DNA from: a virus
Lineage: Duplodnaviria > Caudoviricetes
IMG/VR virus record: IMGVR_UViG_3300012038_000181
Span: 8,533-72,532 of that record
Reading direction: 5' to 3' (one strand)
DNA: 64,000 bases
Below the pieces are notes generated by a model. The model saw nothing but the letters and a program-made list of their open reading frames with translations. It did not search any database and was not told the DNA's origin. Numbering within the stretch: position 1 is the stretch's first letter; each line of letters begins with the position of its first letter. The position numbers and the translations under genes are program-made. This document shows positions 1,725 to 28,111 of this stretch, piece after piece.

Positions 1725-4385
1725 ATGGCAAAAACCATCATAGAGGCGATAAATAGCGCATCGACTTACCAGTTTGAAGGCGATACCGCGGAGTTACGGC
1801 TGTATCCAACTCAGACCTTTCTTGCTTCTACGGGGCAGATGGTCGGGCAAGGTTCGCCGTGGAACACTGAGAGTTGGTATTTACCCGTCACTTGTGATGT
1901 GCAGCCTACGGGCGTGCTTTATGTCCCATCCTTTGAAATAGATTCCACTACCGATGGTCAGCCGCGCACTTCCAAATACATAGCAGCTTTATTTGACGAA
2001 GGTGGAGCTTATATAGGGCCATTCCCGTTAATGAATCCGAACGGGTTTGCCATTCCGCCTCCTGAACTGATGCCTACCCCGACGTGGGGGCAGTTACAGA
2101 TTTACAACCGACTTCCTACGCTTCTCTATCCACCACAGACCTATCCGACGCGAGATGAGATGTACGCGGCGATTGCTGCTGCGCTCGGAGAACAAGGGCC
2201 AAAGGCGTCAGAAACCGTAGTCGGGATTACGGCGTTAAGCGAAGACCCGACAGACCCGCAGTTTCCGATTGCGGTCTCAGTGACCGATCCTATATGGGAA
2301 GAATTTGTTGATGGTGGCCCTAACGCTTCCATCACGGTTAAGGGGCTTACCAAACTAGATGTTGCGCCTGCTAGTGCGACCGATCCTATCGCAGTTGGTG
2401 TTAATTCTCCTCGTGTGGCCCAAAAAGCCATTGTAGCTACAGGAGTCGAGGTGACGGATACGGCAGCACTTCAGGCGGCTATTACGAGTTTAGGTGCCGC
2501 AGGTGGAGTGATCCGCACCCTAAGTTCACTTGCTACTCCGCTAAAAATTGATGGGACGGGAATCACATTTCCGGCTTTAACTAACACAATCACATTTGAG
2601 GTGTTTGGGTATTGGGATTTGTCTGGTTCAGATCACACGCTGACCTTTCCCAATGGGGTAAATTGGGTCGGGCTTGGTGGAGCGGCAAATCTTCAATTTC
2701 AACACGCAGGCCCGACGGCGGGGATTATTCCGCCAACTGGTAATGTGACAACTCTGAAATTAACTGGAGCCAATAATCAGTTAATTCAAAATCTGGCTAT
2801 TGATAGTTGTTCAGGAATTGGAATTTACATGGATGGAGTGAGTGCGTTAGGAGCACTCAAGACGCTGGAAAACGTAGCGGTTGTAGCATCTACAGCGGTG
2901 ACTTCACAGCCGATTCAGATAGATGCTGTCTTTTGGGTTTGGATGCGCGATTGTTCATTCCTTTCGACCTCGACATCGCTGCATTCAATACGGATTACGA
3001 CATCTAGTGCTGCTCATAGTGCTGCGGGGTTGATCTACATTGACGATACCATAATTGCAGGGAAAGGAATCAAGGTTGACGCGCAGGTAAATGTAAGCAG
3101 ACAAGGAAATATATTCCTAACAAACGTACACGCTGAGTCGTTAAGCGACAGTTTACTCACCTTGGACGGAACGAATGGGCCAATCGCTAACATTGCGCTC
3201 AACCAAGTAGGCGTATCGGACTCGGTAAGCCTGCCCTATATTTTCAACGTAGTTGCTGGCCCTATAAAGAACATTTTCGTTAGAGACTCGGATAATTTAG
3301 CTACTGAAGCTGGAAGTACGCTGTGGGTTAATAACACAGCCAGCATAAATAATTTAGTCATTGAGGGCGGCAGAGATTTTGAATATGTGACGGGATGGTC
3401 GCTAGGAACCGCGCAACGTAATTACGTCTTAACGAGGGACGGACAAGTAGACAGTTCGTGGTTGGGTCAAGGCGCGGCCATGAGTCCGAGTTTAATTCCG
3501 TATACAAGTTTGGCGGTAAATCAAGACGCGTCAGCATGGGGTGGGTTGACAGGAACCGCGACGGTGACTACTGGAATAATTGCTCCAGACGGTACAGCGA
3601 CCGCCGCCACTCTTTCTTCTGCGGGCGGGGAACGCGCCCGTCGAGTGTATGCTGTGAGTGGCAGGTCAGCGGCTGTTGGTGATTGGGTTATGGTGGGTGT
3701 TTGGATGCGATCCGAAGACGCAACAGTCCCGTCTTATACTGGAAGCGTTTTTGCTACAAATTCAGGTAGCGGGCCAGCGACATTTGATTCAACCCTCACA
3801 ACTCTGGGGCTGTCAAACGATCCTTCGCAAAGATTAAGCGCATCATGGGTTCCTGTTGTAGTGGCTGGCAAGATAACCACGTCACCCTCTGCGACTTATG
3901 ATTTCATCATGGATTTGAAGTGTGATTCCACTCACCCGACTTCCTATTGGATGCCTTTTATTATTCACATTCCAGCGGCAACTTTGACAGATGCTGAAGT
4001 AATAAGGTTCAAACGGTATCTAACGAACGTGGTATCGAGTGTTCCTACAGGATCGTTGGCGATGTACCCGCACCAAAGTTTCTACGCGGGGAGGGTTATT
4101 TCGCAAGTCATTACCACCTTCGCAGACGCCGATACAACCCCCTCAGTGGCTGCCGGAAATGAGTTCACGGCAACGAATACGGCCCCCACGTCCATCACTA
4201 CGTTTGACGACGGAGTGAACGGTCAAACCATTACTATTCTTTTTACCAATGGTAATTCAACGATTGTTAATGGAGCGTCAGTCAAATTGTTGGCGGCAGG
4301 TAACTTTGTGGGTAGTGCCGACGATACCTTAACGCTCACACGTAGAGGCGGAACCTGGTACGAAATCGGAAGAAGCGTGAACTAG
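1725..4385 (+). CDS. tail spike/fibre with beta-helix (pectin-lyase-like) body; no signal peptide
   Basis: 886 aa; two fibre-type repeats (ASETVVGITAL, ASITVKGLTKL), beta-helix-like middle, C-terminal ADTTPSV...TLTL...WYEIGRS module. Confidence 0.75.
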   Translation: MAKTIIEAINSASTYQFEGDTAELRLYPTQTFLASTGQMVGQGSPWNTESWYLPVTCDVQPTGVLYVPSFEIDSTTDGQPRTSKYIAALFDEGGAYIGPFPLMNPNGFAIPPPELMPTPTWGQLQIYNRLPTLLYPPQTYPTRDEMYAAIAAALGEQGPKASETVVGITALSEDPTDPQFPIAVSVTDPIWEEFVDGGPNASITVKGLTKLDVAPASATDPIAVGVNSPRVAQKAIVATGVEVTDTAALQAAITSLGAAGGVIRTLSSLATPLKIDGTGITFPALTNTITFEVFGYWDLSGSDHTLTFPNGVNWVGLGGAANLQFQHAGPTAGIIPPTGNVTTLKLTGANNQLIQNLAIDSCSGIGIYMDGVSALGALKTLENVAVVASTAVTSQPIQIDAVFWVWMRDCSFLSTSTSLHSIRITTSSAAHSAAGLIYIDDTIIAGKGIKVDAQVNVSRQGNIFLTNVHAESLSDSLLTLDGTNGPIANIALNQVGVSDSVSLPYIFNVVAGPIKNIFVRDSDNLATEAGSTLWVNNTASINNLVIEGGRDFEYVTGWSLGTAQRNYVLTRDGQVDSSWLGQGAAMSPSLIPYTSLAVNQDASAWGGLTGTATVTTGIIAPDGTATAATLSSAGGERARRVYAVSGRSAAVGDWVMVGVWMRSEDATVPSYTGSVFATNSGSGPATFDSTLTTLGLSNDPSQRLSASWVPVVVAGKITTSPSATYDFIMDLKCDSTHPTSYWMPFIIHIPAATLTDAEVIRFKRYLTNVVSSVPTGSLAMYPHQSFYAGRVISQVITTFADADTTPSVAAGNEFTATNTAPTSITTFDDGVNGQTITILFTNGNSTIVNGASVKLLAAGNFVGSADDTLTLTRRGGTWYEIGRSVN

Positions 4386-4393
4386 GGAGATTT

Positions 4394-4723
4394 ATGAGAT
4401 TCAAAGTTGTGCTGTTTACCGCAGTTTTGGTTACGTCATTATTTGTAGCTACAAGTGCTCAAGCACCTTCAGACCCGAAACTTGATGCTGATTCACAGGC
4501 GAAGTTGAAGGTTGCATTTGATAACTGGCAGAAGGCGTTAGAAGCGGCAGAAGTCGCTAAGTTGAGTTTCAATGCCACGATGTATCAGGTTATGGCTGAG
4601 GCGAAAGTAAGTCCAAAGGAATATCAGTTGTCGATTGAAAAAGGAGCGTTTGTGTTGACAAAGGTGGAAGTAGCTAAAGCCCCTGAAGTTCAGAAAGCCC
4701 CCGCGAATAAACCGAAGGAATAA
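4394..4723 (+). CDS. exported hypothetical protein (Sec signal peptide)
   Basis: MRFKVVLFTAVLVTSLFVATSA|Q; helical mature part with K/A/P-rich tail. Confidence 0.7.
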   Translation: MRFKVVLFTAVLVTSLFVATSAQAPSDPKLDADSQAKLKVAFDNWQKALEAAEVAKLSFNATMYQVMAEAKVSPKEYQLSIEKGAFVLTKVEVAKAPEVQKAPANKPKE

Positions 4724-4727
4724 TGTA

Positions 4728-6053
4728 ATGAAAAGACTTCTCTTGCTCGTTCTCTTACTTGTTTGTCCCTTGATTGCGGAAGCGCAAGTCACTTCTACTC
4801 CAGTGGTTTTTGTAACTGTTGCTCCCACAGTTTGCCAACCCAAGAAGCTCTACTCGCTCACTACAAATGGAAATCTCTATGAGCGTTTAGGCTCATCGGG
4901 CACCGCTTGTACCTTGATAGTGAACGCTGCGGGAGGCGTGATTTCGGGATCAGGTACTACCAACACAATGACTAAGTGGACGAGCGCAACTGCGTTGGGA
5001 AACGCCTTAATGACTGATGATGGCTCGCTTATCGTGGCGGCTGTTACGCCAACTACGGGGAATGGATTTACAGTATCCGGCGCAACCGTTACTTCAGGCA
5101 ACTTAGTTTCCATTGCTGCGTCAGGCACGGCAGCGGCGAGTAACACCAAGACCGCTTTGAGTGTCGCCACGAGCGGAGCAAATGCAACGAACGCGATGAC
5201 TACGTTTGGAGCGGTGATCTCCAATACAAGTACTAACGGTACATCGGGAACTAACGTCGCGCTTCAGTTGACTGCTAGTGGGGCCACCACCGCGAACACT
5301 GCGCTGAATATTACCGCAGGGCAAATCCTTGGAGCCGATGGTACGGCGGCGAGTCCTGAATATAGTTTCGGGACTGAGACCGGAATGGGCATGACTAGAA
5401 CCAGTTCAGGCATTCTAGGCTTCTATGTCTCAGGTATTCGTCAGTTTGATATTCGAGCGGCGGGAGCTGTCTATATCCCGCTGAATACAGCGACATTTTC
5501 TTTGGGAACTAACGCGGATGTCAGGCTTTCTCGACAAGCTGACGGGGTACTTCAGATAGGCGCGGCAGCAGGTAACGCCACAGGCTCGCTACTAGCCACC
5601 AACGGGACTTTTACTGGCACTATTACTAACGCGGGCATTGCATCTGATGCGGCAACCACTAACAATACAGTTTGCACAACTACGACCACGAATGTCTTTA
5701 CAAAAGGATCGGGCGTCGGAGGTTTGTGTTTGGGTACGTCATCGGCTCGATTCAAGAATCACATTCAGGGTCTTACTGATGGCCTTGCGGTCGTTACGCA
5801 ACTTCAGCCGAAACGATTCTTTTACAATAAAGGTTATGGTAACTCAGGGGCTAAAGAGAGTATCGGGTTTGTTGCTGAAGATGTTCAGAAGATTGCTCCA
5901 CGATTGGTAGCATTAGACGCTAAGGGGCAACCATCATCCGTAGATTATCTCGGCATAGTGCCAATGCTGGTCAACGCGATCAGGGAGCAGCAAGCCGAGA
6001 TTCAGTTACTCAAGCAGCAAGTAAAGTCTTTGACGCGCAAGCGTAAGCATTGA
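4728..6053 (+). CDS. signal-peptide-bearing fibre protein with C-terminal peptidase S74 (intramolecular chaperone) domain
   Basis: MKRLLLLVLLLVCPLIAEA|Q; T/G/A/S-rich shaft; TSSARFKNHI...LQPKRFFY...IGFVAEDV...VDYLGIVPMLVNAIREQQAEI. Confidence 0.85.
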   Translation: MKRLLLLVLLLVCPLIAEAQVTSTPVVFVTVAPTVCQPKKLYSLTTNGNLYERLGSSGTACTLIVNAAGGVISGSGTTNTMTKWTSATALGNALMTDDGSLIVAAVTPTTGNGFTVSGATVTSGNLVSIAASGTAAASNTKTALSVATSGANATNAMTTFGAVISNTSTNGTSGTNVALQLTASGATTANTALNITAGQILGADGTAASPEYSFGTETGMGMTRTSSGILGFYVSGIRQFDIRAAGAVYIPLNTATFSLGTNADVRLSRQADGVLQIGAAAGNATGSLLATNGTFTGTITNAGIASDAATTNNTVCTTTTTNVFTKGSGVGGLCLGTSSARFKNHIQGLTDGLAVVTQLQPKRFFYNKGYGNSGAKESIGFVAEDVQKIAPRLVALDAKGQPSSVDYLGIVPMLVNAIREQQAEIQLLKQQVKSLTRKRKH

Positions 6054-6079
6054 CGTACCCGTAGGCATAGGCGTAGGAT
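6050..6079 (+). promoter_or_regulatory. sigma70-type promoter with phased TAGG repeats
   Basis: TTGACG (6050-6055), N18, TAGGAT (6074-6079); TAGG at 6062, 6068, 6074. Confidence 0.65.
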
Positions 6080-6089
6080 GGTTTTTGAA

Positions 6090-6251
6090 ATGCCCTATAC
6101 AAGTAAAACCATCTCGCTTCACCACCAAGTTTGGGAGTTCCTTGAGTGCCAGAAAAAGGTGTATGGATCGTACAACAAGGCGTTGAAAGCACTGCTCATT
6201 GACAAGCCAAAGGTTAGCAAGCGAGACAAAAAGAAAGAGGAAATAAAATGA
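6090..6251 (+). CDS. small ribbon-helix-helix/antitoxin-like DNA-binding protein
   Basis: Hand translation MPYTSKTISLHHQVWEFLECQKKVYGSYNKALKALLIDKPKVSKRDKKKEEIK (53 aa); ATGA overlap with next gene; similar to 35374 ORF. Confidence 0.6.
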   Translation: MPYTSKTISLHHQVWEFLECQKKVYGSYNKALKALLIDKPKVSKRDKKKEEIK

Positions 6252-6841
6252 AGGCTCTTTTGCTCGTACTCGCGTTTGCTTTACCAATCTTTGCTCAAGA
6301 ATCCAATGTCCACGTCGCAGGTGTCTTGCAAGCGACTGCTAACTTAGGTTTCGGTAATCCAATCTACGGCGCACAAGTCGGTGGAGATTATCGCATCAAC
6401 AAGGTAGTGCTCTCAGGTGACTTCTCAGTGTTACGGCTCAAGAAGAACGTAGGCGGCTCAGGAATGCAGTTTACCGCCAAAGAGGGCGTCAGGGTCTACC
6501 TCAACAAGAAGTTCTTCGTGCAAGGCGTCTCGCGTCAATGGAAGTATGATGTAGAGCAATTCGGTAAGTCAGGAGTAGATATTGGTGGTGGAGGAGGGGT
6601 TTTCTTTCTCGGTGAAAATATGGCAGGGACGTTTGCTGCTAACTATTTACACAACGTCCACGAGACACAGCGACCAAGTGGAGTGGATTCCAAGCAGAAA
6701 ACGGTTGACGCAGAGTTACGATTGTACCTTCAGCATCATGTGTTCTTCGCGCCAAGGTTAGCGGTCTCAAGATTCAAGTCAGGAAACACGAATTTGACGG
6801 GCGTGAGTGTCGCGGTACAAGTTGGATTCTGGTTTAAGTAG
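6248..6841 (+). CDS. outer-membrane beta-barrel protein
   Basis: Signal MKALLLVLAFALPIFA|Q; alternating amphipathic strands; ends VQVGFWFK (aromatic C-terminal motif). Confidence 0.7.
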   Translation: MKALLLVLAFALPIFAQESNVHVAGVLQATANLGFGNPIYGAQVGGDYRINKVVLSGDFSVLRLKKNVGGSGMQFTAKEGVRVYLNKKFFVQGVSRQWKYDVEQFGKSGVDIGGGGGVFFLGENMAGTFAANYLHNVHETQRPSGVDSKQKTVDAELRLYLQHHVFFAPRLAVSRFKSGNTNLTGVSVAVQVGFWFK

Positions 6842-6853
6842 GTTACTGAGAAT

Positions 6854-8185
6854 ATGAAGAACTTTCTCGTTGGCGTAATCCTAATCTTGGCTGCTAGTGG
6901 GGCCGCGTATTCTCAAGCTAGGACTGCAAGCCAAATTCAAACTGCCCCGTTTTCGCAACTGACTACCGACCTTCCTTCGGCCACAGTTCGTGTCTGTATT
7001 AACTGCCAAGCAAATGCGGCTACGGGTGTTTGTGAAAGTGGCGCGTACCAGATGGTGGCAACGAGACTTGACGATGCATGGAAGTGTACGAAGTACGATC
7101 CGAACGAGAACGGCGGTGGCATTTGGGGTTCAATTACAGGAACGCTCTCTAATCAAACCGACCTGCAAACCGCCTTAAACCTGAAAGCGACGTTAGCAAG
7201 TCCCACGTTTACGGGAACAGTAACGATTCCAACTCCGTTTACTTTGGCAGCGGTGTCGGTTTTACCGACCGGAACAGAGTTGAATTTTGTTGACGGGGTT
7301 ACGTCTGCGATTCAAACCCAACTCGATGCGAAGACGCCTACATCGCGCACTGTTTCCACGTCTAGTCCACTTGGGGGCGGTGGAGCGTTATCGGGCAATC
7401 TTACGCTGACTTGCGCTACATGTGTCACTAGTGCTGCACCCTTGACCTCTACCGCGTTAGTTACGGGCGCAGGCAGTCAGGGGTCACAAACTCCTTCTGC
7501 GACCGCTACACTTGATTCCAGCGGTAATCTCTCTACGGCAGGCTCACTAGCTACGGGCGTTGGCGGGGCAGTGGCGGGGAATATTGGGTTAGGTCAGGGA
7601 ACCGCTACTAGTGTGGCTGTAAATACCATTCAGCATCAGGCTCCAACAAGCGTAACGGGTTACAATTTAGTTTATCCTTCAGCAGCAGGTTCGGGACTCC
7701 TTCAGTGGACTAATTCAACCGACGTAATGACTGGTACGTTAAGCGCGTTGACTTCAGGGCGTGTTACCTTCGCTACGACGAATGGGCTGCTCTCCGATGA
7801 TGCTGACTTAACCTTCGCTACCGACACACTTACTGCTACTAAGATTATTGGTTCTACGAGTGCTACGTCAGCAACTTACCTTACGGCAACCAACTGTGCG
7901 GATTCAGCAGGGGCAGCGGCTTGTGGTTCAGCGGCAGCAGGTAGCGTGGTAATTGATGCAGCAGGGACTTCCGTGGTCGTCAGCACGACTGCCGTAACCG
8001 CGAACAGTCAGATTTTTATTCAGGAAGATTCATCGCTCAACACACGACTAAGCGTGACTTGTAATACTGTTACCGGACGACTCTACACGGTTACGGCACG
8101 CACGGCGGCAACGTCATTCACAATTACTACGAGTGCCGCTCCAATAACTGATCCCGCTTGTTTGAGTTATAAAATTGTCAACTAA
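6854..8185 (+). CDS. signal-peptide-bearing tail-fibre-like protein
   Basis: MKNFLVGVILILAASGAAYS|Q; fibre motifs WGSITGTLSNQTDLQTALNLK, LASPTFTGT, TELNFVDGVTSAIQTQLDAK. Confidence 0.75.
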   Translation: MKNFLVGVILILAASGAAYSQARTASQIQTAPFSQLTTDLPSATVRVCINCQANAATGVCESGAYQMVATRLDDAWKCTKYDPNENGGGIWGSITGTLSNQTDLQTALNLKATLASPTFTGTVTIPTPFTLAAVSVLPTGTELNFVDGVTSAIQTQLDAKTPTSRTVSTSSPLGGGGALSGNLTLTCATCVTSAAPLTSTALVTGAGSQGSQTPSATATLDSSGNLSTAGSLATGVGGAVAGNIGLGQGTATSVAVNTIQHQAPTSVTGYNLVYPSAAGSGLLQWTNSTDVMTGTLSALTSGRVTFATTNGLLSDDADLTFATDTLTATKIIGSTSATSATYLTATNCADSAGAAACGSAAAGSVVIDAAGTSVVVSTTAVTANSQIFIQEDSSLNTRLSVTCNTVTGRLYTVTARTAATSFTITTSAAPITDPACLSYKIVN

Positions 8186-8192
8186 GGAGATT

Positions 8193-8600
8193 ATGAGAAA
8201 AAGCGCGATATTCATTGGTGCCATCTTCCTGCTTAGTGCGGGCGTCTACGCTCAACAAACAGGTTCACTAGTCTGGAATCCGAAAGGAGCTGTGACTACA
8301 ATCGACGCGCCCGCGAGTGGGACTTTCACGTTTACGCTGCCAGGAAAGTCGGGGACGTTTGCGCTGCTCTCGGACATCCCAACTACGTTACCGACTCCCG
8401 TTCCTGCTCCAAGCGTCCCGCAATACTTTGGCGCAGTGGTTTTGGTGAATGGGACGGGCTCAGTGACGTTTGCTACGGCAGTAAGTGGATGTCGAGTGTC
8501 GGATAGAAGTGGTAATTCGGTGAAGTACGGCCCGACTGCTAATGCGGCTATCTGGCAATTCTCTGGAGTTGGCCCAACCGTTGATTATGAGTGTCGCTAA
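8193..8600 (+). CDS. small exported fibre-like protein
   Basis: AAGGAG RBS; MRKSAIFIGAIFLLSAGVYA|Q; TFTLPGKSGTFALLSDIP fibre-like motif. Confidence 0.65.
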   Translation: MRKSAIFIGAIFLLSAGVYAQQTGSLVWNPKGAVTTIDAPASGTFTFTLPGKSGTFALLSDIPTTLPTPVPAPSVPQYFGAVVLVNGTGSVTFATAVSGCRVSDRSGNSVKYGPTANAAIWQFSGVGPTVDYECR

Positions 8601-8609
8601 TTGCCAACC

Positions 8610-11156
8610 ATGAGAAGTTTCTTTGCGCTAACCATTCTCCTGCTCGTTAGTACGGCTGCTTACGGACATGGAGTAAGGAAGTCTCCTCCCGTAGTCTTTG
8701 CCTGCACGGGTTCGTCACCTGCGCTTTCCGCGCCCGACACGGGCAATGCAGTTACCAACGGAGCGAACTTCCAACTGTGTATCAACGCCGCAGTTTTAGG
8801 TGATACGATCACACTTACCGCAGGAGCTACTTACAACAGCCCGACAGCAGCAGAAGGATTCAGGTTTCCCAACAAGGGCGCAGGCAGCACGTACATCAAC
8901 ATCGTTTCTTCCAATCCCGCGTCTAGACCCACTGACCTTTCTACCTATCCCTCGCTTGATCCGGCCACAGGCTATCCGCGTCGTGTGACCACAGCAGAAG
9001 CAGTAGGGATGCCTAAGCTAGTAGGCACAGATGAAGGTTATCCTGCTCTGTTCTTTAATCTGAGTTCGCATCACTACAACTTGGTTGGCTTAGAAGTAAC
9101 CAACGCAACAGGGATTCAGTACCAAGTAGGTTTGATTAGAACCGGAGGCGGTGGGCAGGAATCCGTCTTTTCTGATTTCTCTCATCATTTAATCTTCGAT
9201 TATCTGTATGTCCATCCGTGGGAGAACGCGAGTCCGACCGAAGACTATGAATACGGTTCAGTAGAAAAAGCGTTTCTGCTTAATGGTTATGACTTCACAA
9301 TCACCCATTGTGCAGTTCAAGGATTCACAGGTTATAGCGAGTCAAATCACGCTCTGCGACTCGACACTAACGCAATCCTAATCGGCTCAGGTACAGGTGA
9401 TATTCTGATTCAAAACAACCTGTTGGAGTCGATGGCGAATAACATCTTCACAGGTGGTTCGGGAGGCATGATTAACCCCACCCACGCCACCACGATTACC
9501 GGAGCGGTCATCACTCAAGCAGGAGGCTCTTTTACTACTACGTTAGCGAGTACCACCGACTTAGAAGTGGGTGATTTCTTTGCTATCTACAACGAGAATA
9601 TCAACGGACGGGGAAATTGTAATCCGGCTTATCAGGGTGGAATTGTGGGCTGTATCTCACCTCCCTCCAACGCAAAGATTACAGCAATTAATCACGGCAC
9701 CGGAGTAGTTACTGCTTCTGGTGGTCTAAGAATGAACTTAGGCTACCGCAAGAACTACATCAACATCTTCAATTCGTCGGGTAGCTATCCAGCGGGCATG
9801 AGTGGCACCTTTACTCTGACGTGGGAAGGACAAACCACAGGCCCGATTACTTACTCATCGACCAAAGCAACGCTGATGTCGAACATCTCGACCGCGCTCA
9901 TTGCGCTCTCGAATGTTGACGCGGCAGACTTTCAGATGGTGGACGATCCCGATTGGGGTGTCTATGTAAACTTTGGTGAGTATTCAGCCATCGTCGGAGC
10001 TACTTGTCCTTCGGTAGATCAGTTCTGTGGAGACACTTGGGCCTATCCCGCAACCATGACGGAGATGACTGGTAACGGCGCAGGGCTAACGGGTGGTACT
10101 TCCCCGACGCTGTACGTTCACTGGAAAGGTCAAGAGTACGGTAGCGGGCTACGCACTGAGGCAGGAGACGAGCCGGACAATGGTTCAGAAGCATGGTGGG
10201 AAGGTTATGGGCTGAATAACATTCAGATGAAGCAGAACATCATTGCCAAGTACGATGCTTGGTATCAGTGGCAGGGAGCGCAGAAAGGGTATCTAGAGTT
10301 CAAAGCCGGAACTAACATGCTACTGGATGGGAACCTGTTCTTCTGGGACGGAGATGATGAACCGCAAGGGCCGGGCGCGTTAGTTCTAACTCCTCATCAG
10401 GACGGCGGCTGTACGTGGTGCGTGATCACCGATTTGACTGTCTCGAATAATTGGTTTCAAACAGGTGGGTTTGCAGGGATGCAGTTGCAGGACGCGATTT
10501 GGTGGGGGCCAATTTCAGAGAATATTATCTTCACTAATAATCTACAGACCGCACCCCAAACAGGTTCACAGCCAGAGTTTGCTTCGGCTATGTCATCGGG
10601 TTACATGACGATGACTCACAATACTTTTCTGTTGGGTAACACAAGATTCATTCAAGGCTATAGCGCGATGGACGGGGATAGTGGTTCGGCTACGAACATC
10701 ATCAGAGACAACATTGTGCGAGCGGGTACAGGGCTGTACTGCTTAATACCGTTACCTGCTCCTGGTCAAGCCGATGACTGTTGGCCTGGTTCAACTAGTG
10801 AGAACAGGCAGAACTTACTCATAGACGATCAAGGATGGATTGGGCCATTTAGCAATCCGTTTGCAGAGTATTGGACGCAATGGGCTGACTTCTGGCCCAC
10901 GCAGTTCTACAACAACTCGATTAGCAATATTAAGTTTGTGAACGCTCCCGCAACCTTCGGAACGAAGTATGGTAACTACCGACTACAAGCCGATAGTCCC
11001 TATCACAACGCAGCGAGTGACGGAACAGATGTAGGAGTAGACTTCGATGCAATGGCGGTAGCTGCGGGTGTTAATTGGTTTCCCACATCAGCGTCGCTTG
11101 GTAGCGTAGGGGTTTCGGGCAAAGTTTCCGTTGGGGGGCGCGTCATCATCAAGTGA
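8610..11156 (+). CDS. exported right-handed beta-helix (polysaccharide lyase/hydrolase-like) protein
   Basis: MRSFFALTILLLVSTAAYG|H; AAVLGDTITLTAGATY start of helix, N-rich repeats, C-terminal NYRLQADSPY...GTDVGVDF; internal GTFTLTWEGQTTGPITY insert. Confidence 0.7.
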   Translation: MRSFFALTILLLVSTAAYGHGVRKSPPVVFACTGSSPALSAPDTGNAVTNGANFQLCINAAVLGDTITLTAGATYNSPTAAEGFRFPNKGAGSTYINIVSSNPASRPTDLSTYPSLDPATGYPRRVTTAEAVGMPKLVGTDEGYPALFFNLSSHHYNLVGLEVTNATGIQYQVGLIRTGGGGQESVFSDFSHHLIFDYLYVHPWENASPTEDYEYGSVEKAFLLNGYDFTITHCAVQGFTGYSESNHALRLDTNAILIGSGTGDILIQNNLLESMANNIFTGGSGGMINPTHATTITGAVITQAGGSFTTTLASTTDLEVGDFFAIYNENINGRGNCNPAYQGGIVGCISPPSNAKITAINHGTGVVTASGGLRMNLGYRKNYINIFNSSGSYPAGMSGTFTLTWEGQTTGPITYSSTKATLMSNISTALIALSNVDAADFQMVDDPDWGVYVNFGEYSAIVGATCPSVDQFCGDTWAYPATMTEMTGNGAGLTGGTSPTLYVHWKGQEYGSGLRTEAGDEPDNGSEAWWEGYGLNNIQMKQNIIAKYDAWYQWQGAQKGYLEFKAGTNMLLDGNLFFWDGDDEPQGPGALVLTPHQDGGCTWCVITDLTVSNNWFQTGGFAGMQLQDAIWWGPISENIIFTNNLQTAPQTGSQPEFASAMSSGYMTMTHNTFLLGNTRFIQGYSAMDGDSGSATNIIRDNIVRAGTGLYCLIPLPAPGQADDCWPGSTSENRQNLLIDDQGWIGPFSNPFAEYWTQWADFWPTQFYNNSISNIKFVNAPATFGTKYGNYRLQADSPYHNAASDGTDVGVDFDAMAVAAGVNWFPTSASLGSVGVSGKVSVGGRVIIK

Positions 11157-11207
11157 CGATTAATTTCCGCATCTACTCGTTTCATATCTGAATCAAAGGT
11201 TGGCATC

Positions 11208-11729
11208 TTAGGTGTCCTTTCGGAGAGTTTCTAGTTGGGCCTCAAACTCAGGCACTAAGTTTTGCAGTTCAAGACGCGTGTATTTGTGGCCCTTCGCCCA
11301 ATCTCGATAGAGTTCATCAAACGCATCTACTCCAAACTTCTTTACAAACCACAGATGGTAAGACGCGGCAGCGGTCATAGCCGCTTTGTAGTTGCAGGGC
11401 CAACATTGTCGAAAGACGTTTCGCAAGTCCCATCGGGTAGCGTAGGAGCGTCGAGATAGAACATGGCCCGTGGTTGGCTTCTCTACCGAACCGCACTCAA
11501 CGCACCTTTCGTACATCACGAGCATGATTTGGAAGACTAACCCGTCAATCGTCTTAATTAGCTTCTTCCGAGTGGTAACTTTGCTGCGTTTTGAGGCTCT
11601 TTTGCGCGACGTTGACGCTGGAGACGTTTTTCTGAGAGGGGCAGACCGTTTGATTGCACTTCTTGGCTTGGAAGGCTTAGAACGAGCCTTCAAAAGTGCT
11701 TCTTCGTAATTTTGTGGCTGAAGGCTCAT
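11208..11729 (-). CDS. ninG: NinG/Rap-like recombination endonuclease
   Basis: RCVECG...TTGHVLSRRSYATRWDLRNVFRQCWPCN motif; start set at the TAATG overlap. Confidence 0.8.
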   Translation of the reverse strand: MSLQPQNYEEALLKARSKPSKPRSAIKRSAPLRKTSPASTSRKRASKRSKVTTRKKLIKTIDGLVFQIMLVMYERCVECGSVEKPTTGHVLSRRSYATRWDLRNVFRQCWPCNYKAAMTAAASYHLWFVKKFGVDAFDELYRDWAKGHKYTRLELQNLVPEFEAQLETLRKDT

Positions 11730-11944
11730 TAGTCGATCCGTTTCCAAGTAAGAATAACTATCTTGCGGGGCAACAGTTCTTTTTCAAGACGCTTGATTGT
11801 TCTCTCAATGGCTTCTTGATTATTCAATGGTGATGTTAGGGTAGAAAAAGCAAAGCCGCCCGATGGAATCTCTTGGGGGCCAAAGATTAGATAGGGAATG
11901 TAGTACCGATACGTCTCATCTGCCACGCTAAACTCTCCTTCCAT
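11729..11944 (-). CDS. hypothetical protein
   Basis: Fills operon gap; stop overlaps ninG start. Confidence 0.5.
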   Translation of the reverse strand: MEGEFSVADETYRYYIPYLIFGPQEIPSGGFAFSTLTSPLNNQEAIERTIKRLEKELLPRKIVILTWKRID

Positions 11945-12285
11945 TAGGTAAGCGAGCATCACCTTGAATCAACTCTAAGGCTGCTACTGCTCCTGCGTCT
12001 TCAAGTTCAATTACTGTTATATCAAGTACGGTGGCGATGTGGTGCTCCAACGATGCGCCCTTGGATTTCTCCCATCCATCCAACATGCAGATGTGGTCAC
12101 ACTCCACTAGACCGAGAATATCCTTCACCATCGCATTGCGATAGGTCTCGCTGACATCGTTCAACTCAGCGGGGCTAACCACCTCAAACCCCTTCTCGCG
12201 CAATTTCTCAGCGGCAGAATGAAAAGCGGGATAATTTCAAATCGGGATAACCCGTCATTGGGCCTGCGAGATAGACACGCGCCAT
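11928..12285 (-). pseudogene. DUF4406-family protein interrupted by a 1-nt insertion
   Basis: AAGGAG-ATG MARVYLAGPMTGYPDL, then GAT TTG AAA TTA; removing one A gives DLNYPAFHSAAEKLREKGFEVVSPAE...LDGWEKSKGASLE. Confidence 0.8.
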
Positions 12286-12383
12286 TTTAGTTGACTCCTT
12301 TGCGTAGGTAGTTCTGAGGTCTGATGGTGAAGTAGTTCATGGATTCCTTCTTTGAAGGGTGAGTGGGGCAACTCACCTTCGGG

Positions 12384-12623
12384 TTAGTGATTCACGTAAC
12401 AGCCGACTTGATTCATGCAACTGCGATACTCCTGCACTTCGTAGTAGTGGCAGTAATCAAAACCGTGTTCAACGCGACAGATCGCAAAGTTGATCTCCGC
12501 TACTGCGTTACAAGCCGTGTGCTGTGTCTCACAGAAGTTATCCGCTGCGACGGGTGCAGGGGCTAAAGAGGTAGCGATAAAAGCTACTACCAAGAGCGTG
12601 AAGATTAAGAGTGGTCGTTTCAT
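12384..12623 (-). CDS. small exported cysteine-rich protein
   Basis: Signal MKRPLLIFTLLVVAFIATSLAPAPVAA; six Cys in about 50 mature residues; GAAAGG RBS. Confidence 0.75.
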   Translation of the reverse strand: MKRPLLIFTLLVVAFIATSLAPAPVAADNFCETQHTACNAVAEINFAICRVEHGFDYCHYYEVQEYRSCMNQVGCYVNH

Positions 12624-12656
12624 TTAGTTACCTTTCTGTGTTTGAATAAAGCCGTG

Positions 12657-12869
12657 TTACGCGGTTCGTTCAATGTAGTATTGCGCAAATCTCTCGTTGC
12701 GCTTCTCAACCATGCGCGTCTGAATCGGCCAACCTTCTTGTCGGAGCGAAAAAACAGCTCCTCCGACATTCCACAGACGGAATTTCTTGAGGCAGTCTTG
12801 CTTGCTGAGATAGTCACCCGAAAGTAAGGCTTGGAGCAACTTGCGTCTTTTAGCTACTTTATCGCTCAT
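12657..12869 (-). CDS. small winged-HTH protein (HTH_39-like)
   Basis: LLQALLSGDYLS...GGAVFSLRQEGWPIQT pattern. Confidence 0.6.
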   Translation of the reverse strand: MSDKVAKRRKLLQALLSGDYLSKQDCLKKFRLWNVGGAVFSLRQEGWPIQTRMVEKRNERFAQYYIERTA

Positions 12870-13048
12870 CGTGTTTTCCTTCCCGATTTTGTGCAGCGTC
12901 GTTTCATTTGGTCTATTTGCGCCCGTGAGAACAGCGGTACGCGCCCCACGGTACGCACGGGGCCGAGCTTCAACTTCTTAATCACACGGCGCACTTGGCG
13001 CGTGCTTAATCGCAGCTCGTCAGCAATGTCCTTAATCTCAATCATCAT
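12866..13048 (-). CDS. excisionase/MerR-like HTH DNA-binding protein
   Basis: IKDIADELRLSTRQVRRVIKK...VGRVPLFSRAQI. Confidence 0.65.
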   Translation of the reverse strand: MMIEIKDIADELRLSTRQVRRVIKKLKLGPVRTVGRVPLFSRAQIDQMKRRCTKSGRKTR

Positions 13049-13760
13049 GGCGATTGTCCTCTCAAGTGGACTTAAAGTCAACTCCTAAATCAAATAATTT
13101 GCGTTAAATTTTGATCTTACGGTAGAATGTGGGGGTTAAAAGCAAAGCGGCCAAGAAGATGAATTCTTGACCGCAGTTTCGCCGGATATGCTTACGGCGT
13201 GTGGAACGTATGAATCAATCTTACCATACAACCCCAGCAGTCACGCAAGGTTTCTCCACGGCTAATGAACTCCTAGAGTCTAGCTCTGAAAATCAAGCCG
13301 CGCTCAAAGGCGATGAGCGGTCTAATCTGACCATCGAAGGGTGGTCACGTACTGCAATACAAACTGACTTTCTTGGGAAGAAAAACCAAGTTTTCCCTCG
13401 CAACGGGCGAGTAGTATATCTCGCTACGCGGACGTGCAGCCGCGTATTCACGGGTTTACGTCGAGGTAGAGACACGTGGTGCTGCCCCTCTGTGGCAGAT
13501 TGTGTGTAAAAAAGTCAGAGAGTAATAGCGCGGTCTTAGACGCTAAACAACTTTCAAAGAGCATATCCAATTACGCAAGACTATCGCTTCCAAGTGGTGC
13601 TCTATCTATTACTACACACCACCAACGGAAGGAAAACCCGTTCTCTGCTTAGATTCAAAGATTAAACGGAAGGGGCGATCAATCGGCCTTGTCAAGAGAG
13701 CCTTGGGATACCCCTTCCGTCGATGACCGCCCTTCCCCAAAGGTCGGTCAAAGGTCAATT

Positions 13761-13961
13761 TTACTTCTTTCCGATGAGGTAGTGCGGATCGCTTTTATGA
13801 AGCACGTCATCCACGCACAGCATTGGCTTAACATCCTTTTCGTGCTGATTGACCAAGTGCTGAGTTGGCCCTAATTTGCTCTCAGCGACCTTCTGACGGG
13901 CAATGTCGCGGGCATGGGGCTTCTCACTATCTACGACTCTTAATCTTAGTTTAGCGGGCAT
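13761..13961 (-). CDS. hypothetical protein
   Basis: 66-aa ORF at the end of a tightly packed leftward operon. Confidence 0.55.
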   Translation of the reverse strand: MPAKLRLRVVDSEKPHARDIARQKVAESKLGPTQHLVNQHEKDVKPMLCVDDVLHKSDPHYLIGKK

Positions 13962-13964
13962 TAT

Positions 13965-14186
13965 TTACCTCCAAGCTAGTCCAATGAGAAATCCAAGCAT
14001 CCCCCCAAGCAGGGAGATAAGCACCAGAACCAAGGCATACAACCAAGTGGGAATCTCACGGGGGCCATAAACCGTCAACATGTCCCCATTCTTTAGGTTA
14101 GGCGGTACGCGATCTACAGTGAGCACCACCTGGGCATGGGGTTTCATTACATAATCAAGTACTTGGAAACGTGGTTTAGCAGTCAT
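13965..14186 (-). CDS. small membrane protein
   Basis: C-terminal hydrophobic helix WLYALVLVLISLLGGMLGFLIGLAW. Confidence 0.6.
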   Translation of the reverse strand: MTAKPRFQVLDYVMKPHAQVVLTVDRVPPNLKNGDMLTVYGPREIPTWLYALVLVLISLLGGMLGFLIGLAWR

Positions 14187-14674
14187 TATTCGCTCTCCTT
14201 TAGTTTTAGAGCAGTGCGGGCGTCCGCTAAAGCTCCCCGATCAACCTGCATCAACACGTAGCGCATTCGTGGATCATCAAACTCAACTCCTGAGTTCACG
14301 ATTTCTTGTAACGCCTCCGCTATCTCTGCTCCCCTTTGTAGTCCAGCAGCGTAGCCCTCTGCTCGTTCGTCTACTGGCCCACTGGCTGAGTCAGTAGCAG
14401 GAGCGGCGATGATTCCTAATACATCGTGTTGCTTCAATCCATCAGCGACAGCGTTTACCTCATCGGCAGATGCGTTCTCAGGCAACAAACCCTTTGCCTC
14501 TCTCACATAGTTGTCGTCAGCAGGAGCGGGTGTAGTGGCGATTATGATTGCTGGTGGTTGTGCTGACTTCGCAATGAACGCTTGGGCATGTTTGATGCCT
14601 TCCGCAAATCCTTCCTTGTATCCCGCATCATAGTCAGCGTTGAACATCGGACGTATCGAAGTGGTAAGGCTCAT
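14186..14674 (-). CDS. mosaic hypothetical protein
   Basis: 162 aa, overlapping start/stop with both neighbours; APA(T)D linker motifs. Confidence 0.6.
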   Translation of the reverse strand: MSLTTSIRPMFNADYDAGYKEGFAEGIKHAQAFIAKSAQPPAIIIATTPAPADDNYVREAKGLLPENASADEVNAVADGLKQHDVLGIIAAPATDSASGPVDERAEGYAAGLQRGAEIAEALQEIVNSGVEFDDPRMRYVLMQVDRGALADARTALKLKESE

Positions 14675-15220
14675 TTGATTTCCTTCCTAATCGCCTCCAT
14701 GATCTTCTCTGCCGCGTTTGACGCGCCCCTGTCGGCATCATCGTTCGTGTAATGCTCCCGAACTTCTGCCGCGACCTTAAACGACTCCGCTATCTCTGCT
14801 GCTCTTTGTAGTCCAGCGGAATGACCGATACCAAGCGCATTAGTGATGGCGGTTTCCGTGGCATCATTCTCAGCACGTAGACGGCGTATCTCTGCTATTA
14901 GAGTGTCCCGTTCGTTGACCGCTTTGACGATGAGTGCGGCGTTAGCTTCGTTCTCGTCGGAAGTGCATTGCGGCCATCCTCCCTCAATCTGAGCGATGCT
15001 TTCACCTGTCGGCGTAACACTGACATCCTTTGGGTGATCCAACATCGCGCCCCCGTAATCATAGATGGCCCACGGACGTGGAGACGCCCCTTCAATAGCT
15101 TCTAGGTCTAGTTGAGTCTCTACTACTGAGGGAGCGGGAGTGTTGAAGCCGCATATTCGGCGTGGGCCTGACTCGAAACAATCGGCGGTATGCTTGGTGC
15201 GCTACTGAGTTATCTGACAT
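14671..15220 (-). pseudogene. Ead/Ea22-like protein, apparently frameshifted near the 5' end
   Basis: The 14671-15045 frame extends upstream without a start (KHTADCF...LDLEAIEGASPRPW...NAALIVKAVNER); ATG at 15220 is 1 nt out of frame. Confidence 0.55.
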
Positions 15221-18792: not shown

Positions 18793-19486
18793 TGGTTTCC
18801 TTTCGTGTTTCTAGTTCTCGTAGTCGATTACGAAACGTGGCGTCCCAATCCAGCTTGCGACCCCGCGCACCTGCGACCCCGCACCAATAATCTCGGAACT
18901 CCGCGAGCGCGGCGTCAACGTCTACGTGCGCGGCGTTAGACTCCGACCAAAGCCTTAAATCCGGCGATAAGGAAAAATCACTTGGTAGCCTCGTTCCGCG
19001 AGCCTCAGCGGAGCGCGTAGCGCGAGGCACTGTTGTTGTCTTTTCTTTTGTATTAGAAGATGAAATAGAAGATGAAGAAGAAAAAGAAGTGTTGAACGAG
19101 TCCGGTTGCCCTTTGGTTGCACCACCCTGTTGCGGGGTTATGTCTTTGCGCTTCTTGCGTTTGTGAGCACTCGCCTTGCCGCCCTTCGCAGATTTCTCGC
19201 GCCAAATCTTTTGCTTTTCGCGTTCAATTTCAAGCCTAGTGTGAACCATCCTTGAACCATTTGTGGGGTCTATTTTGAATCGCGCTAGCACCACCCTTAT
19301 ATCGGTGGTTGAACCACCCTTGCAGAGCATAGAGATAGCACTAGGTTCGGCGGGTATGCTTCCCTCACGCCAACAGTAGGCGAGCAGCCGAATGTAGATA
19401 CCTTCTTGTCGTAGCGTCATCAACTGAACATGCTCGTCTGCGAGATATTCAGCTGCATAAAACTGAAACGCGGGGGAAGATGCCAT
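18641..19486 (-). CDS. replication initiator, YdaU/DUF1376 family
   Basis: MASSPAFQFYAAEYLAD...EGIYIRLLAYCWREGSIP; Ser-rich linker; C-terminal RGTRLPSDF...KLDWDATFRN. Confidence 0.85.
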   Translation of the reverse strand: MASSPAFQFYAAEYLADEHVQLMTLRQEGIYIRLLAYCWREGSIPAEPSAISMLCKGGSTTDIRVVLARFKIDPTNGSRMVHTRLEIEREKQKIWREKSAKGGKASAHKRKKRKDITPQQGGATKGQPDSFNTSFSSSSSISSSNTKEKTTTVPRATRSAEARGTRLPSDFSLSPDLRLWSESNAAHVDVDAALAEFRDYWCGVAGARGRKLDWDATFRNRLRELETRKETNGSNKPNNGFTTANERRSASFNGLLSVVQKLRDESSGTVNQDVRGESVAS

Positions 19487-19776
19487 CAGAGTTTCTCCTT
19501 TGGCAATGTGAGCGGATACAAGATTTCATAACAGAGCATTTTGGAGCCGTTTTTGGGTAACGGTGGTGTGCGAGGTTTTAGTAGTCCTAGATGTACCATG
19601 TGCTCTAGGCGTGTTTCGAGTTTACGTGGGCCTAATGTGGTTGCCTCACGGAGCCAATCCTCACTGCAGGTAGCAATGCGGCGGGGGCTAGATATGCAAT
19701 GAAGAACGGAAAGAACTACTTTGTTGCGGCCTTTGACTTGGGGGTCAAGGATTATCTGCTTAAGTTCATTGGACAT
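19486..19776 (-). CDS. winged-HTH-like protein
   Basis: Precedes the initiator with a TGATG overlap; LREATTLGPRKLETRLEHMVHLGLL helix pattern. Confidence 0.45.
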   Translation of the reverse strand: MSNELKQIILDPQVKGRNKVVLSVLHCISSPRRIATCSEDWLREATTLGPRKLETRLEHMVHLGLLKPRTPPLPKNGSKMLCYEILYPLTLPKEKL

Positions 19777-19978
19777 AGAAAACGACCTTTCACCGTCGCG
19801 CTCGCGTTTGGCTCGACCTTCTGCCAGTCTCCTCAAAAGACAGAAATCGTGTGCGAAACGCGACTGTGAAAAGTCGCTAAGGAGACGTTAACGCTGGAGC
19901 CAGCAGCGCGTCAATTCAGTTGTCAAAAAGCGAAGGGATTGTAACACTCTAAACACGAACGCTACAATCCCTTTTTCG

Positions 19979-20599
19979 CTAGAAGGGAATGTCGTCAGTG
20001 TCGTCTCCGAGTGGTGGTGCGGATGCCTTCTTAGGTTCCGGTGCGCCATTCTCGATGTAACTCCACTCCTCTGACTTCTTAATGATCGCCTTGATGCCAT
20101 CACTCAATTCGTCAAACTTCTCATGGTCGAAGTTTTCTTCATCAAGCCAAAAGGTTGAAGACGGGTGTACCTGTGGCGGGCAAGTCGTGTTCTTAGGCAA
20201 TCCTGAGACGGTAGCAACCTTTGTTTTGCCGTTCTCTCTCGACACTATGGTCAAGAGACACGGAACGCCTAGAATCGACTCTAAATCGAATTTCTGGAGT
20301 TCGGCGTCAGTGAAACCTCTACCACGCCACGCTTCCAAATCAGCCCTCAAGTTAGCCTTCTCGCCAAGCGAGTTGGTGTAGAAGCGACTGGTAGTGATCG
20401 GGCGCATCTCGTTCTCGATACTAATGAGTTCTTCGGGCAGTTCCCAGGTCACCAAGATTTGATTGCGTCGGGTTGGTTGGCCCATGTACTCGCCGTGCTG
20501 TGTACCTAAATCGGTGATGCGAATACAGCGGGCTATGTGTGTTCCTTGTGGTGCGGGAGTGAAAGAACCTCCACCTGAATCGTTCGCGTATCTTCCCAT
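19979..20599 (-). CDS. phage SSB-like protein (NGO0469-type)
   Basis: PQGTHIARCIRITDLGTQ...WEL...SLGEKANLRADLEAWRG; acidic DDTDDIPF tail. Confidence 0.8.
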   Translation of the reverse strand: MGRYANDSGGGSFTPAPQGTHIARCIRITDLGTQHGEYMGQPTRRNQILVTWELPEELISIENEMRPITTSRFYTNSLGEKANLRADLEAWRGRGFTDAELQKFDLESILGVPCLLTIVSRENGKTKVATVSGLPKNTTCPPQVHPSSTFWLDEENFDHEKFDELSDGIKAIIKKSEEWSYIENGAPEPKKASAPPLGDDTDDIPF

Positions 20600-20625
20600 T
20601 TCTACTTATTCTCCTTCTTCTGCTT

Positions 20626-20985
20626 TTAAGTTCTGTGTCGTTGTTGTATTTGCCATTCATCGCGCAGGTTTGCGCCCATTGATTGACAGGCTGAAAGCTG
20701 TTCCTTTGTTATATCAAGAACAGTTTTCAAGTATTTGTACTTCACGTCAGCGGTCAAAAACCGCTTGTATTCCCCTTGACACTTACCGTCTGCAATAGCC
20801 TTCTTTTGCTGAACGGTTCCCTCTGCTCGTAAAACTTCTTGACCGTGTTTATCTTCGTAAATCCCGCGACTGGTAGCGTACTCATCTCCCGCCTTGTAAA
20901 TCTCCGTAACTACTTCGTTAGCACGTTGAATCAGCCGCCAGATTTCTTCGTTTACGTCCGATGGTTTTAGGGGCGTTTGCCTCAT
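20626..20985 (-). CDS. coiled-coil recombination-region protein
   Basis: 119 aa helical ORF between the nuclease and SSB. Confidence 0.55.
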   Translation of the reverse strand: MRQTPLKPSDVNEEIWRLIQRANEVVTEIYKAGDEYATSRGIYEDKHGQEVLRAEGTVQQKKAIADGKCQGEYKRFLTADVKYKYLKTVLDITKEQLSACQSMGANLRDEWQIQQRHRT

Positions 20986-21773
20986 GCCTTAACCACTCCT
21001 TCGCCAATCGCTACGCAAGTTTCGATGAAACTGCAATAACCGCACGGCCACTTGCTGTAAGGCACTTCTTTGAGTGGGTCACGGATGATCGCCCCGCAGT
21101 ATTCGCGTTCAGGTATTTTACCCTCACGAGCGAGTGTAACGATAGCTTTTAATCGTGCAATTTCACGCTGAATTTCTTCCTCAAAGTCTGAGACTTTGAA
21201 TCTCCACTCTGCTATAATTCTCTCGTCCTTTGTGGCAGTTTTGCGAGCATAAACGATGCAAAGATAGTCACAGTTAATTGATTTGGCAGAGATGCCTACT
21301 TGCAGAACGTGTTCGGGTTTTGGCCCCTCTGCTTTTTGGTCTTTCTTGTTCCATCGACCATTAGATTTAAGACGGTCGCCTGTGGCTAACTTGAAACCAA
21401 AGTCGGACGTGGATTTAATTTCACAGCACACGCTCTTTGAATCATCTGATGGATATTTCAAGTCGGCGCGACAAGTAATAAAGTCTTCGATAACTCCGTT
21501 GACTTCCTTTTCTGCGTCAGGAATCTTGGCGAGCATGGCCGCTTGGATTTTGTCGTGAATAGCATCGCCCACGTAGAAGTTGAACAACGAGTCTCCGGTC
21601 ATTGGGCTAGACGCTTCAACGCCAAGCACGCGGAATCCGATAGCACGGGCGCAACCACCAGCGGATGACGCATTCGCATGTAACTGATCGGCCAAAAGAG
21701 ACGGAGCACGCTCGCGCTGATCGCGTTCGGCAACAAGGTGTTCAAAGAGAATATCTTGAATCTTAGGTAGCAT
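20982..21773 (-). CDS. PD-(D/E)XK Cas4-like exonuclease
   Basis: ASSAGGCAR, GDAIHD, RADL...EIKS, QV motif, terminal CGYCSF...C. Confidence 0.8.
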   Translation of the reverse strand: MLPKIQDILFEHLVAERDQRERAPSLLADQLHANASSAGGCARAIGFRVLGVEASSPMTGDSLFNFYVGDAIHDKIQAAMLAKIPDAEKEVNGVIEDFITCRADLKYPSDDSKSVCCEIKSTSDFGFKLATGDRLKSNGRWNKKDQKAEGPKPEHVLQVGISAKSINCDYLCIVYARKTATKDERIIAEWRFKVSDFEEEIQREIARLKAIVTLAREGKIPEREYCGAIIRDPLKEVPYSKWPCGYCSFIETCVAIGEGVVKA

Positions 21774-27641: not shown

Positions 27642-27792
27642 TGACCGAACAAAAGAAGATTGAGCGGCTAGCAGAGAACATCAAGCGGATCGTGAACAAC
27701 CCAATAGGCATTTACCGAGGTCGTGAAGAACTCCGACTAAAGGTAATCAACGGCACGGTAGCGAGTGCCTTGACAACGATCAAAAAGAAGTA

Positions 27793-28104: not shown

Positions 28105-28111
28105 CAAAGAT

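Follow-up and report, generated by a model that had tools for sequence, protein, structure and literature searches.

The particles of tailed phages are held to be assembled wholly in the cytoplasm. Exported proteins that are not part of the virion, such as lambda Lom and the receptor-blocking lipoproteins T5 Llp and Cor, are encoded beside receptor-binding genes. Phage-like fibres with a signal peptide are described in Bdellovibrio bacteriovorus, whose trimeric MAT fibres join it to an N-domain and, in one subgroup, to an S74 chaperone (Caulton et al. 2024, PMC10769870). Phages of Porphyromonas gingivalis encode secreted proteins with Q-rule leaders (Matrishin et al. 2023, PMC10367356; Szczesniak et al. 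2023, PMC10653852). A full-text literature search found no papers on exported tail fibres, and the nearest phage precedent is an unremarked annotation in the records of Cellulophaga phages. Here we analysed an uncultured tailed phage from the IMG/VR record IMGVR_UViG_3300012038_000181 (72.5 kb, completeness rating 97%). Bases 8533-72532 of this record form the window, a stretch of 64,000 nucleotides whose positions are used below, and the first 8.7 kb of the record are locus L002. Six nearly consecutive genes at 4394-11156 of the window, each named here after its first position, encode fibre-like proteins, an enzyme-like protein, an outer-membrane barrel and a small helical protein, all with predicted Sec leaders.

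Leaders were called over every open reading frame (ORF) of the 72.5-kb record with our own heuristic for n-, h- and c-regions, which is crude and not a trained predictor. For Sec export and cleavage by signal peptidase I it asks for a positive n-region, a hydrophobic h-region of 8-16 residues and small residues at -3/-1, all inside roughly the first 30 residues. The six genes (4394, 4728, 6248, 6854, 8193 and 8610) scored 5.1-7.1, and their leaders are classical by eye too. With the same heuristic, no leader was scored on any gene of the head and tail block at 37-64 kb, nor on the 886-amino-acid (aa) spike directly upstream of the cluster. Elsewhere in the genome three or four genes were leader-like, all of them small, and one is the lipoprotein-like gene of the lysis cassette. 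Given about 10 leader-like genes among 75, a run of six would arise by chance with p < 7e-5. Ribosome sites of the GGAG/GAGG type lie directly 5' of the ATGs at 4394, 6248 and 8193, and AAGGA lies 5' of 4728, so the leaders should be translated. Gln stands at +1 of the predicted cleavage site (A/Q or S/Q, the slash marking the site) in five leaders, while 8610 has G/H. The earlier note on this DNA had described six such genes, five of them with this Gln, below a spike without a signal, and our scan bore this out.

The leaders were retained while the sequences drifted to 28-77% identity. A sister phage (G003, 74.7 kb with direct terminal repeats, rated complete) has a large terminase (TerL) 78% identical to ours, and its leader block (locus L012) likewise closes the late operon. 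Five of the six genes have homologues there, all leader-bearing, with identities of 50% for 4728 (over the C-terminal 250 aa), 69% for 6248, 77% for 8193, 69% for 6854 and 26-33% for 8610. A further relative, L115, shares an 872-aa portal-side protein (78%) and a 690-aa tail protein (54%) and has leader-bearing homologues of 6854, 8193 and 8610. Among the 120 best database homologues of 6854 our scorer found a leader on 87, many of the remaining ones being fragments, and in most of the 87 a Gln lies at or adjoins the predicted cleavage site. The expectation that homologues would carry leaders was thus confirmed, with one exception in the 8610 family. This is P0003 (L004 185-2944), a 919-aa protein 40% identical to 8610, which is leader-less, with in-frame stops upstream, and keeps four of the five Cys pairs.

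P0003 means that the leader is optional for the 8610 enzyme family and that paired Cys alone are no proof of periplasmic folding. Judging from these sequences, the family exists in an exported and a non-exported form. P0003 also lends something to the idea that the N-termini are uncleaved anchors, assembly handles or wrong starts on ordinary cytoplasmic tail parts, as this homologue works without a leader. We consider this idea very improbable, however. The n-, h- and c-regions are classical with small residues at -3/-1 and stand directly behind ribosome sites, the leaders outlast sequence drift, the Gln at +1 is nearly invariant across the family of the barrel 6248, and for an outer-membrane barrel export is obligatory. 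At least one of the six proteins must be exported, because 6248 is predicted to be such a barrel. By their sequences, the six proteins are with high probability genuine Sec substrates that the relatives conserve, rather than tail parts of the ordinary cytoplasmic kind, and export of the products of all six genes appears highly likely.

The barrel gene (6248..6841, + strand) encodes 197 aa with the leader ...IFA/QESN and the C-terminus ...GFWFK. An AlphaFold2 model from a 34-sequence alignment reached a predicted local distance difference test (pLDDT) score of 92.6 and has ten antiparallel strands; it superseded a poor model from four sequences (pLDDT 57). Foldseek against the PDB placed OpcA (2vdf) at the top, followed by chitoporin, Pla/OmpT, autotransporter beta-domains, OmpX and NspA, and the matches listed were exclusively outer-membrane barrels. 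An exhaustive profile search gave a family of 41 cluster representatives, in which Gln17 (the predicted +1) hardly varies and the G-x-W/Y/H-F motif at the C-terminus keeps its aromatic residue. No Pfam or NCBIfam match was found at E 0.1, including Lom/Ail (PF06316) and OMP_b-brl (PF13505); one Atlas neighbour, in which 24% of the members carry PF13505, is a lead only. The signal peptide, the closed antiparallel barrel of the model and the C-terminal aromatic beta-signal together identify 6248 as a predicted outer-membrane barrel. Its size is similar to that of lambda Lom. In contrast to the eight-stranded Lom/Ail/OmpX group it has ten strands, an OpcA/OmpT-like topology and a small family of its own, and unlike Llp and Cor it is not a lipoprotein. 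On the strength of the model, we propose that a small family of phage-borne ten-stranded outer-membrane barrels exists in probable Acidobacteriota phages.

The first gene of the cluster (4394..4723, + strand) encodes a small helical protein of 109 aa without Cys, with the leader ...TSA/QAPS (score 5.9). It had no Pfam, PHROG or NCBIfam match, and no homologue was found in the genome of the sister phage. It is homologous to the C-terminal 90 or so aa of leader-bearing proteins encoded beside the barrel in loci L063 and L015 (31-33%, E 3e-6 and 1e-4), and a profile of the 4394 family also detected the gene after the barrel in L062. A reading of 4394 and the barrel as spanins was dropped, as the phage has a separate lysis cassette at 27.0-29.0 kb.

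The second gene (4728..6053, + strand) encodes a 441-aa fibre with the leader ...AEA/QVTS, a short N-domain with two Cys, a fibre body and, at the C-terminus, an S74 intramolecular chaperone. Residues 338-394 matched Pfam PF13884 (Peptidase_S74) over profile positions 1-57 of 58, with E 1e-10 and 42 bits against a cut-off of 22, and tail-fibre PHROGs matched as well. When 4728 is aligned to the long tail fibre of phage S16 (6f45) over its chaperone region, SSARFK stands opposite SSDRRIK (the Ser-x4-Lys or SDxxxK dyad), and 4728 carries the Ser-x4-Lys dyad of a predicted self-cleaving S74 chaperone. The Cys of the mature protein are at 36/61 and 316/334. Leader-bearing homologues are encoded in the sister phage (L012 8676-9797) and in L063 (726 aa, 35%, N-domain included). 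A signal peptide, an N-domain, a fibre and the S74 dyad (SDxxxK, here SSARFK) are also the parts of the MAT fibres, which fold outside the cytoplasm, but the resemblance is architectural only. MATs are encoded on the chromosome of a predator, located on its surface and begin with a beta-rich N-domain of about 130 aa, whereas the proteins studied here come from a phage late operon and have shorter, Cys-bonded N-parts.

Three further genes follow the barrel. The first (6854..8185, + strand) encodes a 443-aa protein with tail-fibre repeats, the leader ...AYS/QART, an N-domain with four Cys and a C-terminal part that varies. A tail-protein PHROG matched at residues 87-141, and K1-lyase_C remained below threshold (21.9 bits against a cut-off of 27). 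Its ten Cys form close pairs, the N-terminal four being invariant in five homologues. The leader-bearing homologue in L115 is 51% identical over the N-terminus. In a scan of genome contigs with 6854 only the promiscuous fibre repeat matched, in Patescibacteria, Bdellovibrionota, Bacteroidota and others, and no host was pointed to; the repeat is thus also found in the phylum that harbours MATs. The second gene (8193..8600, + strand) encodes a small fibre-tip-like protein of 135 aa with the leader ...VYA/QQTG (score 6.0, behind an AAGGAG site). Its one Cys pair, Cys100/134, is invariant among homologues, and the leader-bearing homologue in L115 is 42% identical. A weak PHROG match was to a virion structural protein (E 0.003), and its Atlas neighbours are small viral proteins, which we take as a lead only.

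The third (8610..11156, + strand), the last gene of the late operon, encodes an 848-aa enzyme-like protein with the leader ...AYG/HGV and five Cys pairs, which are conserved among homologues; the homologue in L115 is 28% identical. It is probably a right-handed beta-helix: the protein itself had no Pfam match, PF13229 included, but PF13229 (Beta_helix), together with leaders, occurs on distant homologues that cover about 30% of it. The closest homologue, P0002 (51%), has a leader and lies on a phage contig, where it adjoins an SU10-type adaptor gene and another leader-bearing gene. A search of viral contigs for related loci with 8610 found nothing. Of the protein content listed by the earlier note, the S74 chaperone of 4728, the tail-fibre match of 6854 and the barrel were found directly, and the beta-helix of 8610 through homologues only. 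Cys make up 1.29% of the exported cluster proteins versus 0.54% of 18 leader-less late proteins (p 4e-4), and in the fibre-like proteins they stand in close pairs conserved among homologues.

The earlier note had seen in the six genes one coherent module. In L115, the genes for 6854, 8193 and 8610 keep the order found here at another place, so this trio appears to be a cassette whose genes move together. The sister phage has 8193 and 6854 in reverse order, and 4394 is missing from it. Conserved synteny, and with it the notion of a module, therefore holds for the trio in L115, but the barrel and 4394 travel separately, occurring in other operons and, in a prophage, with the early genes. On the 104-kb phage contig L063, the barrel and a leader-bearing 4394-like protein end an early or middle operon, facing convergent genes for a leader-bearing S74 fibre and a beta-helix protein. 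The barrel of L015 likewise lies at the end of another operon, and in both L015 and L062 a 4394-like gene is near it. In L067/L068 an integrated prophage has the barrel among its early genes, and over the 20 kb examined no fibre gene was called. Conversely, leader-bearing fibre-like blocks without a barrel in the stretch examined were found in L013 (eight genes), the temperate L014 (three), L003 (two), L114 (two) and Cellulophaga phage phi10:1 (four or five). Since the barrel and the fibres occur without each other, we regard the six genes as two sets, not one machine: set A, the trio and 4728, and set B, the barrel and 4394.

This separation bears on the view that the fibres are displayed on the infected cell, anchored on its outer membrane through the barrel and serving receptor masking, phage exclusion or adhesion. 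MAT fibres make such a view conceivable, as they sit on the cell surface and join a signal peptide to a conserved N-domain and to a tip, which may be S74 or another (PMC10769870). In both our phage and its sister the barrel also stands among fibre genes, and in L063 it adjoins leader-bearing S74 and beta-helix genes. However, because leader-bearing fibres occur without it, the barrel is unlikely to be their general anchor or translocator. With 180 residues, ten strands and short loops, the modelled barrel would be too small to pass a trimeric fibre. None of the six proteins has a type IX secretion system (T9SS) C-terminal sorting domain (PF18962 / TIGR04183 / PF13585) or a lipobox according to Pfam and NCBIfam, and no autotransporter-like part was found in them. 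Finally, expression late in the infection of an apparently lytic phage would leave little time for exclusion to pay. We judge surface display improbable.

The late operon itself suggests that the particle has fibres of its own. It crosses the record ends, takes in a 1793-aa multi-glycosyltransferase, leader-less collagen-like fibre paralogues, the 886-aa spike and the six leader genes, and stops at 11156, facing convergent genes on the - strand. The leader-less spike (1725..4385, + strand) has an N-terminal part of 195 aa that alone is conserved in the sister phage (79%). Judging by its sequence, it follows the common scheme in which a virion-anchoring N-domain carries an exchanged binding part, which would make it the particle's own spike. 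The leader-less fibre paralogues (window 62386-63030, 63066-63998 and 167-484; L002 7024-7545 and 8120-8635) have an N-terminal domain of about 100 aa in common. All except the 105-aa member at 167-484 carry collagen-like G-x-S/G-Y-S repeats, and they are probably the particle's own fibres.

Tentatively, we favour a reading in which set A consists of accessory proteins that mature in the periplasm and are released at lysis, while set B alters the envelope. Both sets would be made late in infection. Set A (6854, 8193, 8610 and 4728) would be exported into the periplasm of the infected cell, where the proteins could fold, trimerise, form their disulfides and lose their leaders. Because nothing in these proteins suggests passage through the outer membrane, they would get outside only upon cell lysis. 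There they might attach to, or cut, glycans on the surface of the lysing cell and of neighbouring cells, which could for instance rid debris of receptors and capsule or open up the matrix for the progeny. Set A would in this way act on the host surface as an accessory and would not be needed to build the particle. Set B would be a moron-like pair inserted into the envelope and changing it, for example by exclusion or surface alteration. An accessory role is supported by the leader-less spike with its conserved N-anchor, by the leader-less fibres with an N-domain that the exported proteins lack, and by the absence of 4394 from the sister phage.

Several observations weigh against an accessory role, and most of them favour another explanation, namely that 4728, 6854, 8193 and 8610 truly belong to the virion, as outer fibres or spikes that mature in the periplasm and dock onto finished particles only when holin and endolysin open the cell. 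Export would allow the disulfides to form, and the barrel and 4394 would be mere bystanders. The genes are placed inside the tail-fibre region or at its end, and the homologues found sit in phage-like contexts. In L115 the trio stands midway along a structural operon, tightly packed between the gene for a giant internal protein and those for the next tail proteins. On L013, a 93-kb phage contig sharing a fibre homologue, eight consecutive leader genes (3729-14796; 135-1019 aa with 2-20 Cys each) are bordered on both sides by leader-less structural-looking genes. Both contexts fit virion parts better than morons. Moreover, 6854 combines a conserved N-part with a variable C-part, as is typical of a virion receptor-binding protein, and the fate of the proteins after export is something that we infer.

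The phi10:1 record (KC821618) points the same way. Its gp091-gp094, which lie where a siphovirus encodes its receptor-binding proteins, all have A/Q leaders when checked, and the record annotates them as 'structural protein, experimental MS/MS proteomics' (MS/MS, tandem mass spectrometry). Holmfeldt et al. 2013 is reportedly the paper behind this record. As in our phage, consecutive A/Q-leader genes stand at the far end of the tail module and are followed by an enzyme gene, there of the pectate-lyase type (gp095). There is no detectable sequence relationship, though, and phi10:1 differs in having no barrel, a Bacteroidota host and little use of Shine-Dalgarno sites. Its proteins have MS/MS support from particle preparations, whereas the cluster described here is known from genes alone. 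Four leader-bearing tail-end proteins labelled structural by MS/MS nonetheless weaken the premise of the earlier note that virion fibres fold in the cytoplasm.

Against a place in the virion, a spike and four or five fibre paralogues, all of them leader-less, are already encoded by the phage, and a docking domain shared between the N-termini of exported and leader-less fibres was sought and none found. No docking partner was identified, and the place and content of the cassette vary among close relatives. The MS/MS of particles banded in caesium chloride (CsCl) can catch envelope debris, and the full-text search found such an assembly route in no paper. On balance we find the virion-appendage explanation somewhat unlikely. 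The earlier note had offered two roles, decoration of the infected cell's surface and fibres added at lysis; the second is the better candidate of the two, although neither is the reading that we prefer.

The Gln at +1 bears on the host, since the Q-rule links it to Bacteroidetes (PMC5837995, PMC10653852). The leaders resemble those of the P. gingivalis phages, which also expose an N-terminal Gln, read there as an adaptation to the export and cyclase system of the host. Those papers named capsid, spanin and unknown genes, not tail fibres, and the host here is probably not a member of the Bacteroidota. The original Q-rule paper gave high values beyond Bacteroidetes too, for example in Ignavibacterium. 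Across 400 kb of two Acidobacteriota genomes (G472 and G599; L074-L093) we found a small residue and Gln just after the h-region in 51 of 92 leader-like N-termini (55%). The same pattern (L094-L113) was present in 13/21 (62%) of a Bacteroidota control and in 3/17 (18%) of a gammaproteobacterium, a comparison made with a crude scorer on a small sample. The Q-rule may thus extend to part of the Acidobacteriota, and because Acidobacteriota genomes show it as well, Gln at +1 is an unsafe marker of a Bacteroidota host.

Relatives and composition suggest that the host is probably an acidobacterium, presumably from soil. GGAG/GAGG sites precede 49% of the genes of this phage and 39-54% of those in L006, L012, L013, L014 and L063, while Shine-Dalgarno use was 6-10% in three Bacteroidota genome loci and in phi10:1. 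The exported proteins are not enriched in the Bacteroidota O-glycosylation sequon. An Acidobacteriota prophage with the barrel homologue P0150 adjoins SecG, tpiA and pgk, and the host triose-phosphate isomerase (TpiA) beside it is 85% and 84% identical to those of two Acidobacteriota genomes, compared with 47% for a Bacteroidota and 44% for a Kapaibacterium genome. With the barrel profile, one Acidobacteriota genome out of 301 sampled gave a match (E 6e-18), whereas the 401 sampled from Bacteroidota gave none beyond a single marginal one (E 8e-4). A Bacteroidota host, which the Gln at +1 had suggested, was rejected on the Shine-Dalgarno use, the sequon, the prophage TpiA and the Gln pattern of Acidobacteriota. 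The host claims make use of none of the three unpublished sampled genomes (G457, G560 and G432). Their weak point is that they lean on a barrel homologue of 37% identity in one prophage and on compositional signs. Among cultured relatives, megablast gave no matches and 6854 had no match in cultured phages; TerL matched only Streptomyces phages, with 27% identity over one fifth of the protein.

Export signals on late fibre-like and enzyme-like proteins would mean either that host-recognition gear is finished in another compartment or that exported non-virion glycan-binding proteins are common. Neither alternative, gear finished elsewhere or many kilobases of exported non-virion proteins, was found in the literature searched. 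If the virion-fibre route were true, it would amount to a two-compartment assembly of tailed phages in several bacterial phyla, here probably in Acidobacteriota. Only a demonstration of that route would make the finding new in kind; otherwise it would be akin to the exported envelope proteins of phages and to MAT-like exported fibres. Host-range prediction and phage engineering presume that fibre genes encode virion parts made in the cytoplasm, and recombinant expression of such disulfide-bonded proteins in the cytoplasm would fail.

In the rest of the genome, TerL lies on the + strand from about 37 kb (PHROG match) and is followed by a row of large genes without family matches, among them those for proteins of 872, 472 and 2308 aa. 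A scan for promoters and terminators returned fewer sites than shuffled sequence, and a search for tRNAs found none. The genes at 27033-28985 (+ strand), 16 kb from the exported cluster, form a probable lysis cassette. It comprises genes for a protein of 202 aa bearing a lipobox-like ILAC and one of 103 aa whose N-terminus has a membrane helix (27793-28104), an ORF of 124 aa, and the gene for an endolysin of the GH19 family (chitinase class I type; 28392-28985; Pfam E 2e-14). Two small leader-bearing ORFs lie on the - strand among the early genes, one of 79 aa that is Cys-rich after the leader (12384-12623) and one of 88 aa with ...TAQA/QKLK (21960-22226).

Genes for HNH endonucleases separate two of the leader-less fibre paralogues. 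An HNH endonuclease gene (518-1156, - strand) also breaks the late operon between the gene for the 105-aa fibre-like protein and the next late gene; the sister phage has no HNH gene at that place, where L012 5510-6223 is contiguous. The giant multi-domain glycosyltransferase/methyltransferase gene (1793 aa; L002 214-5595) lies inside the late operon and is kept in L115 at 19022-21719. Its target might be virion or fibre proteins, or host glycans.

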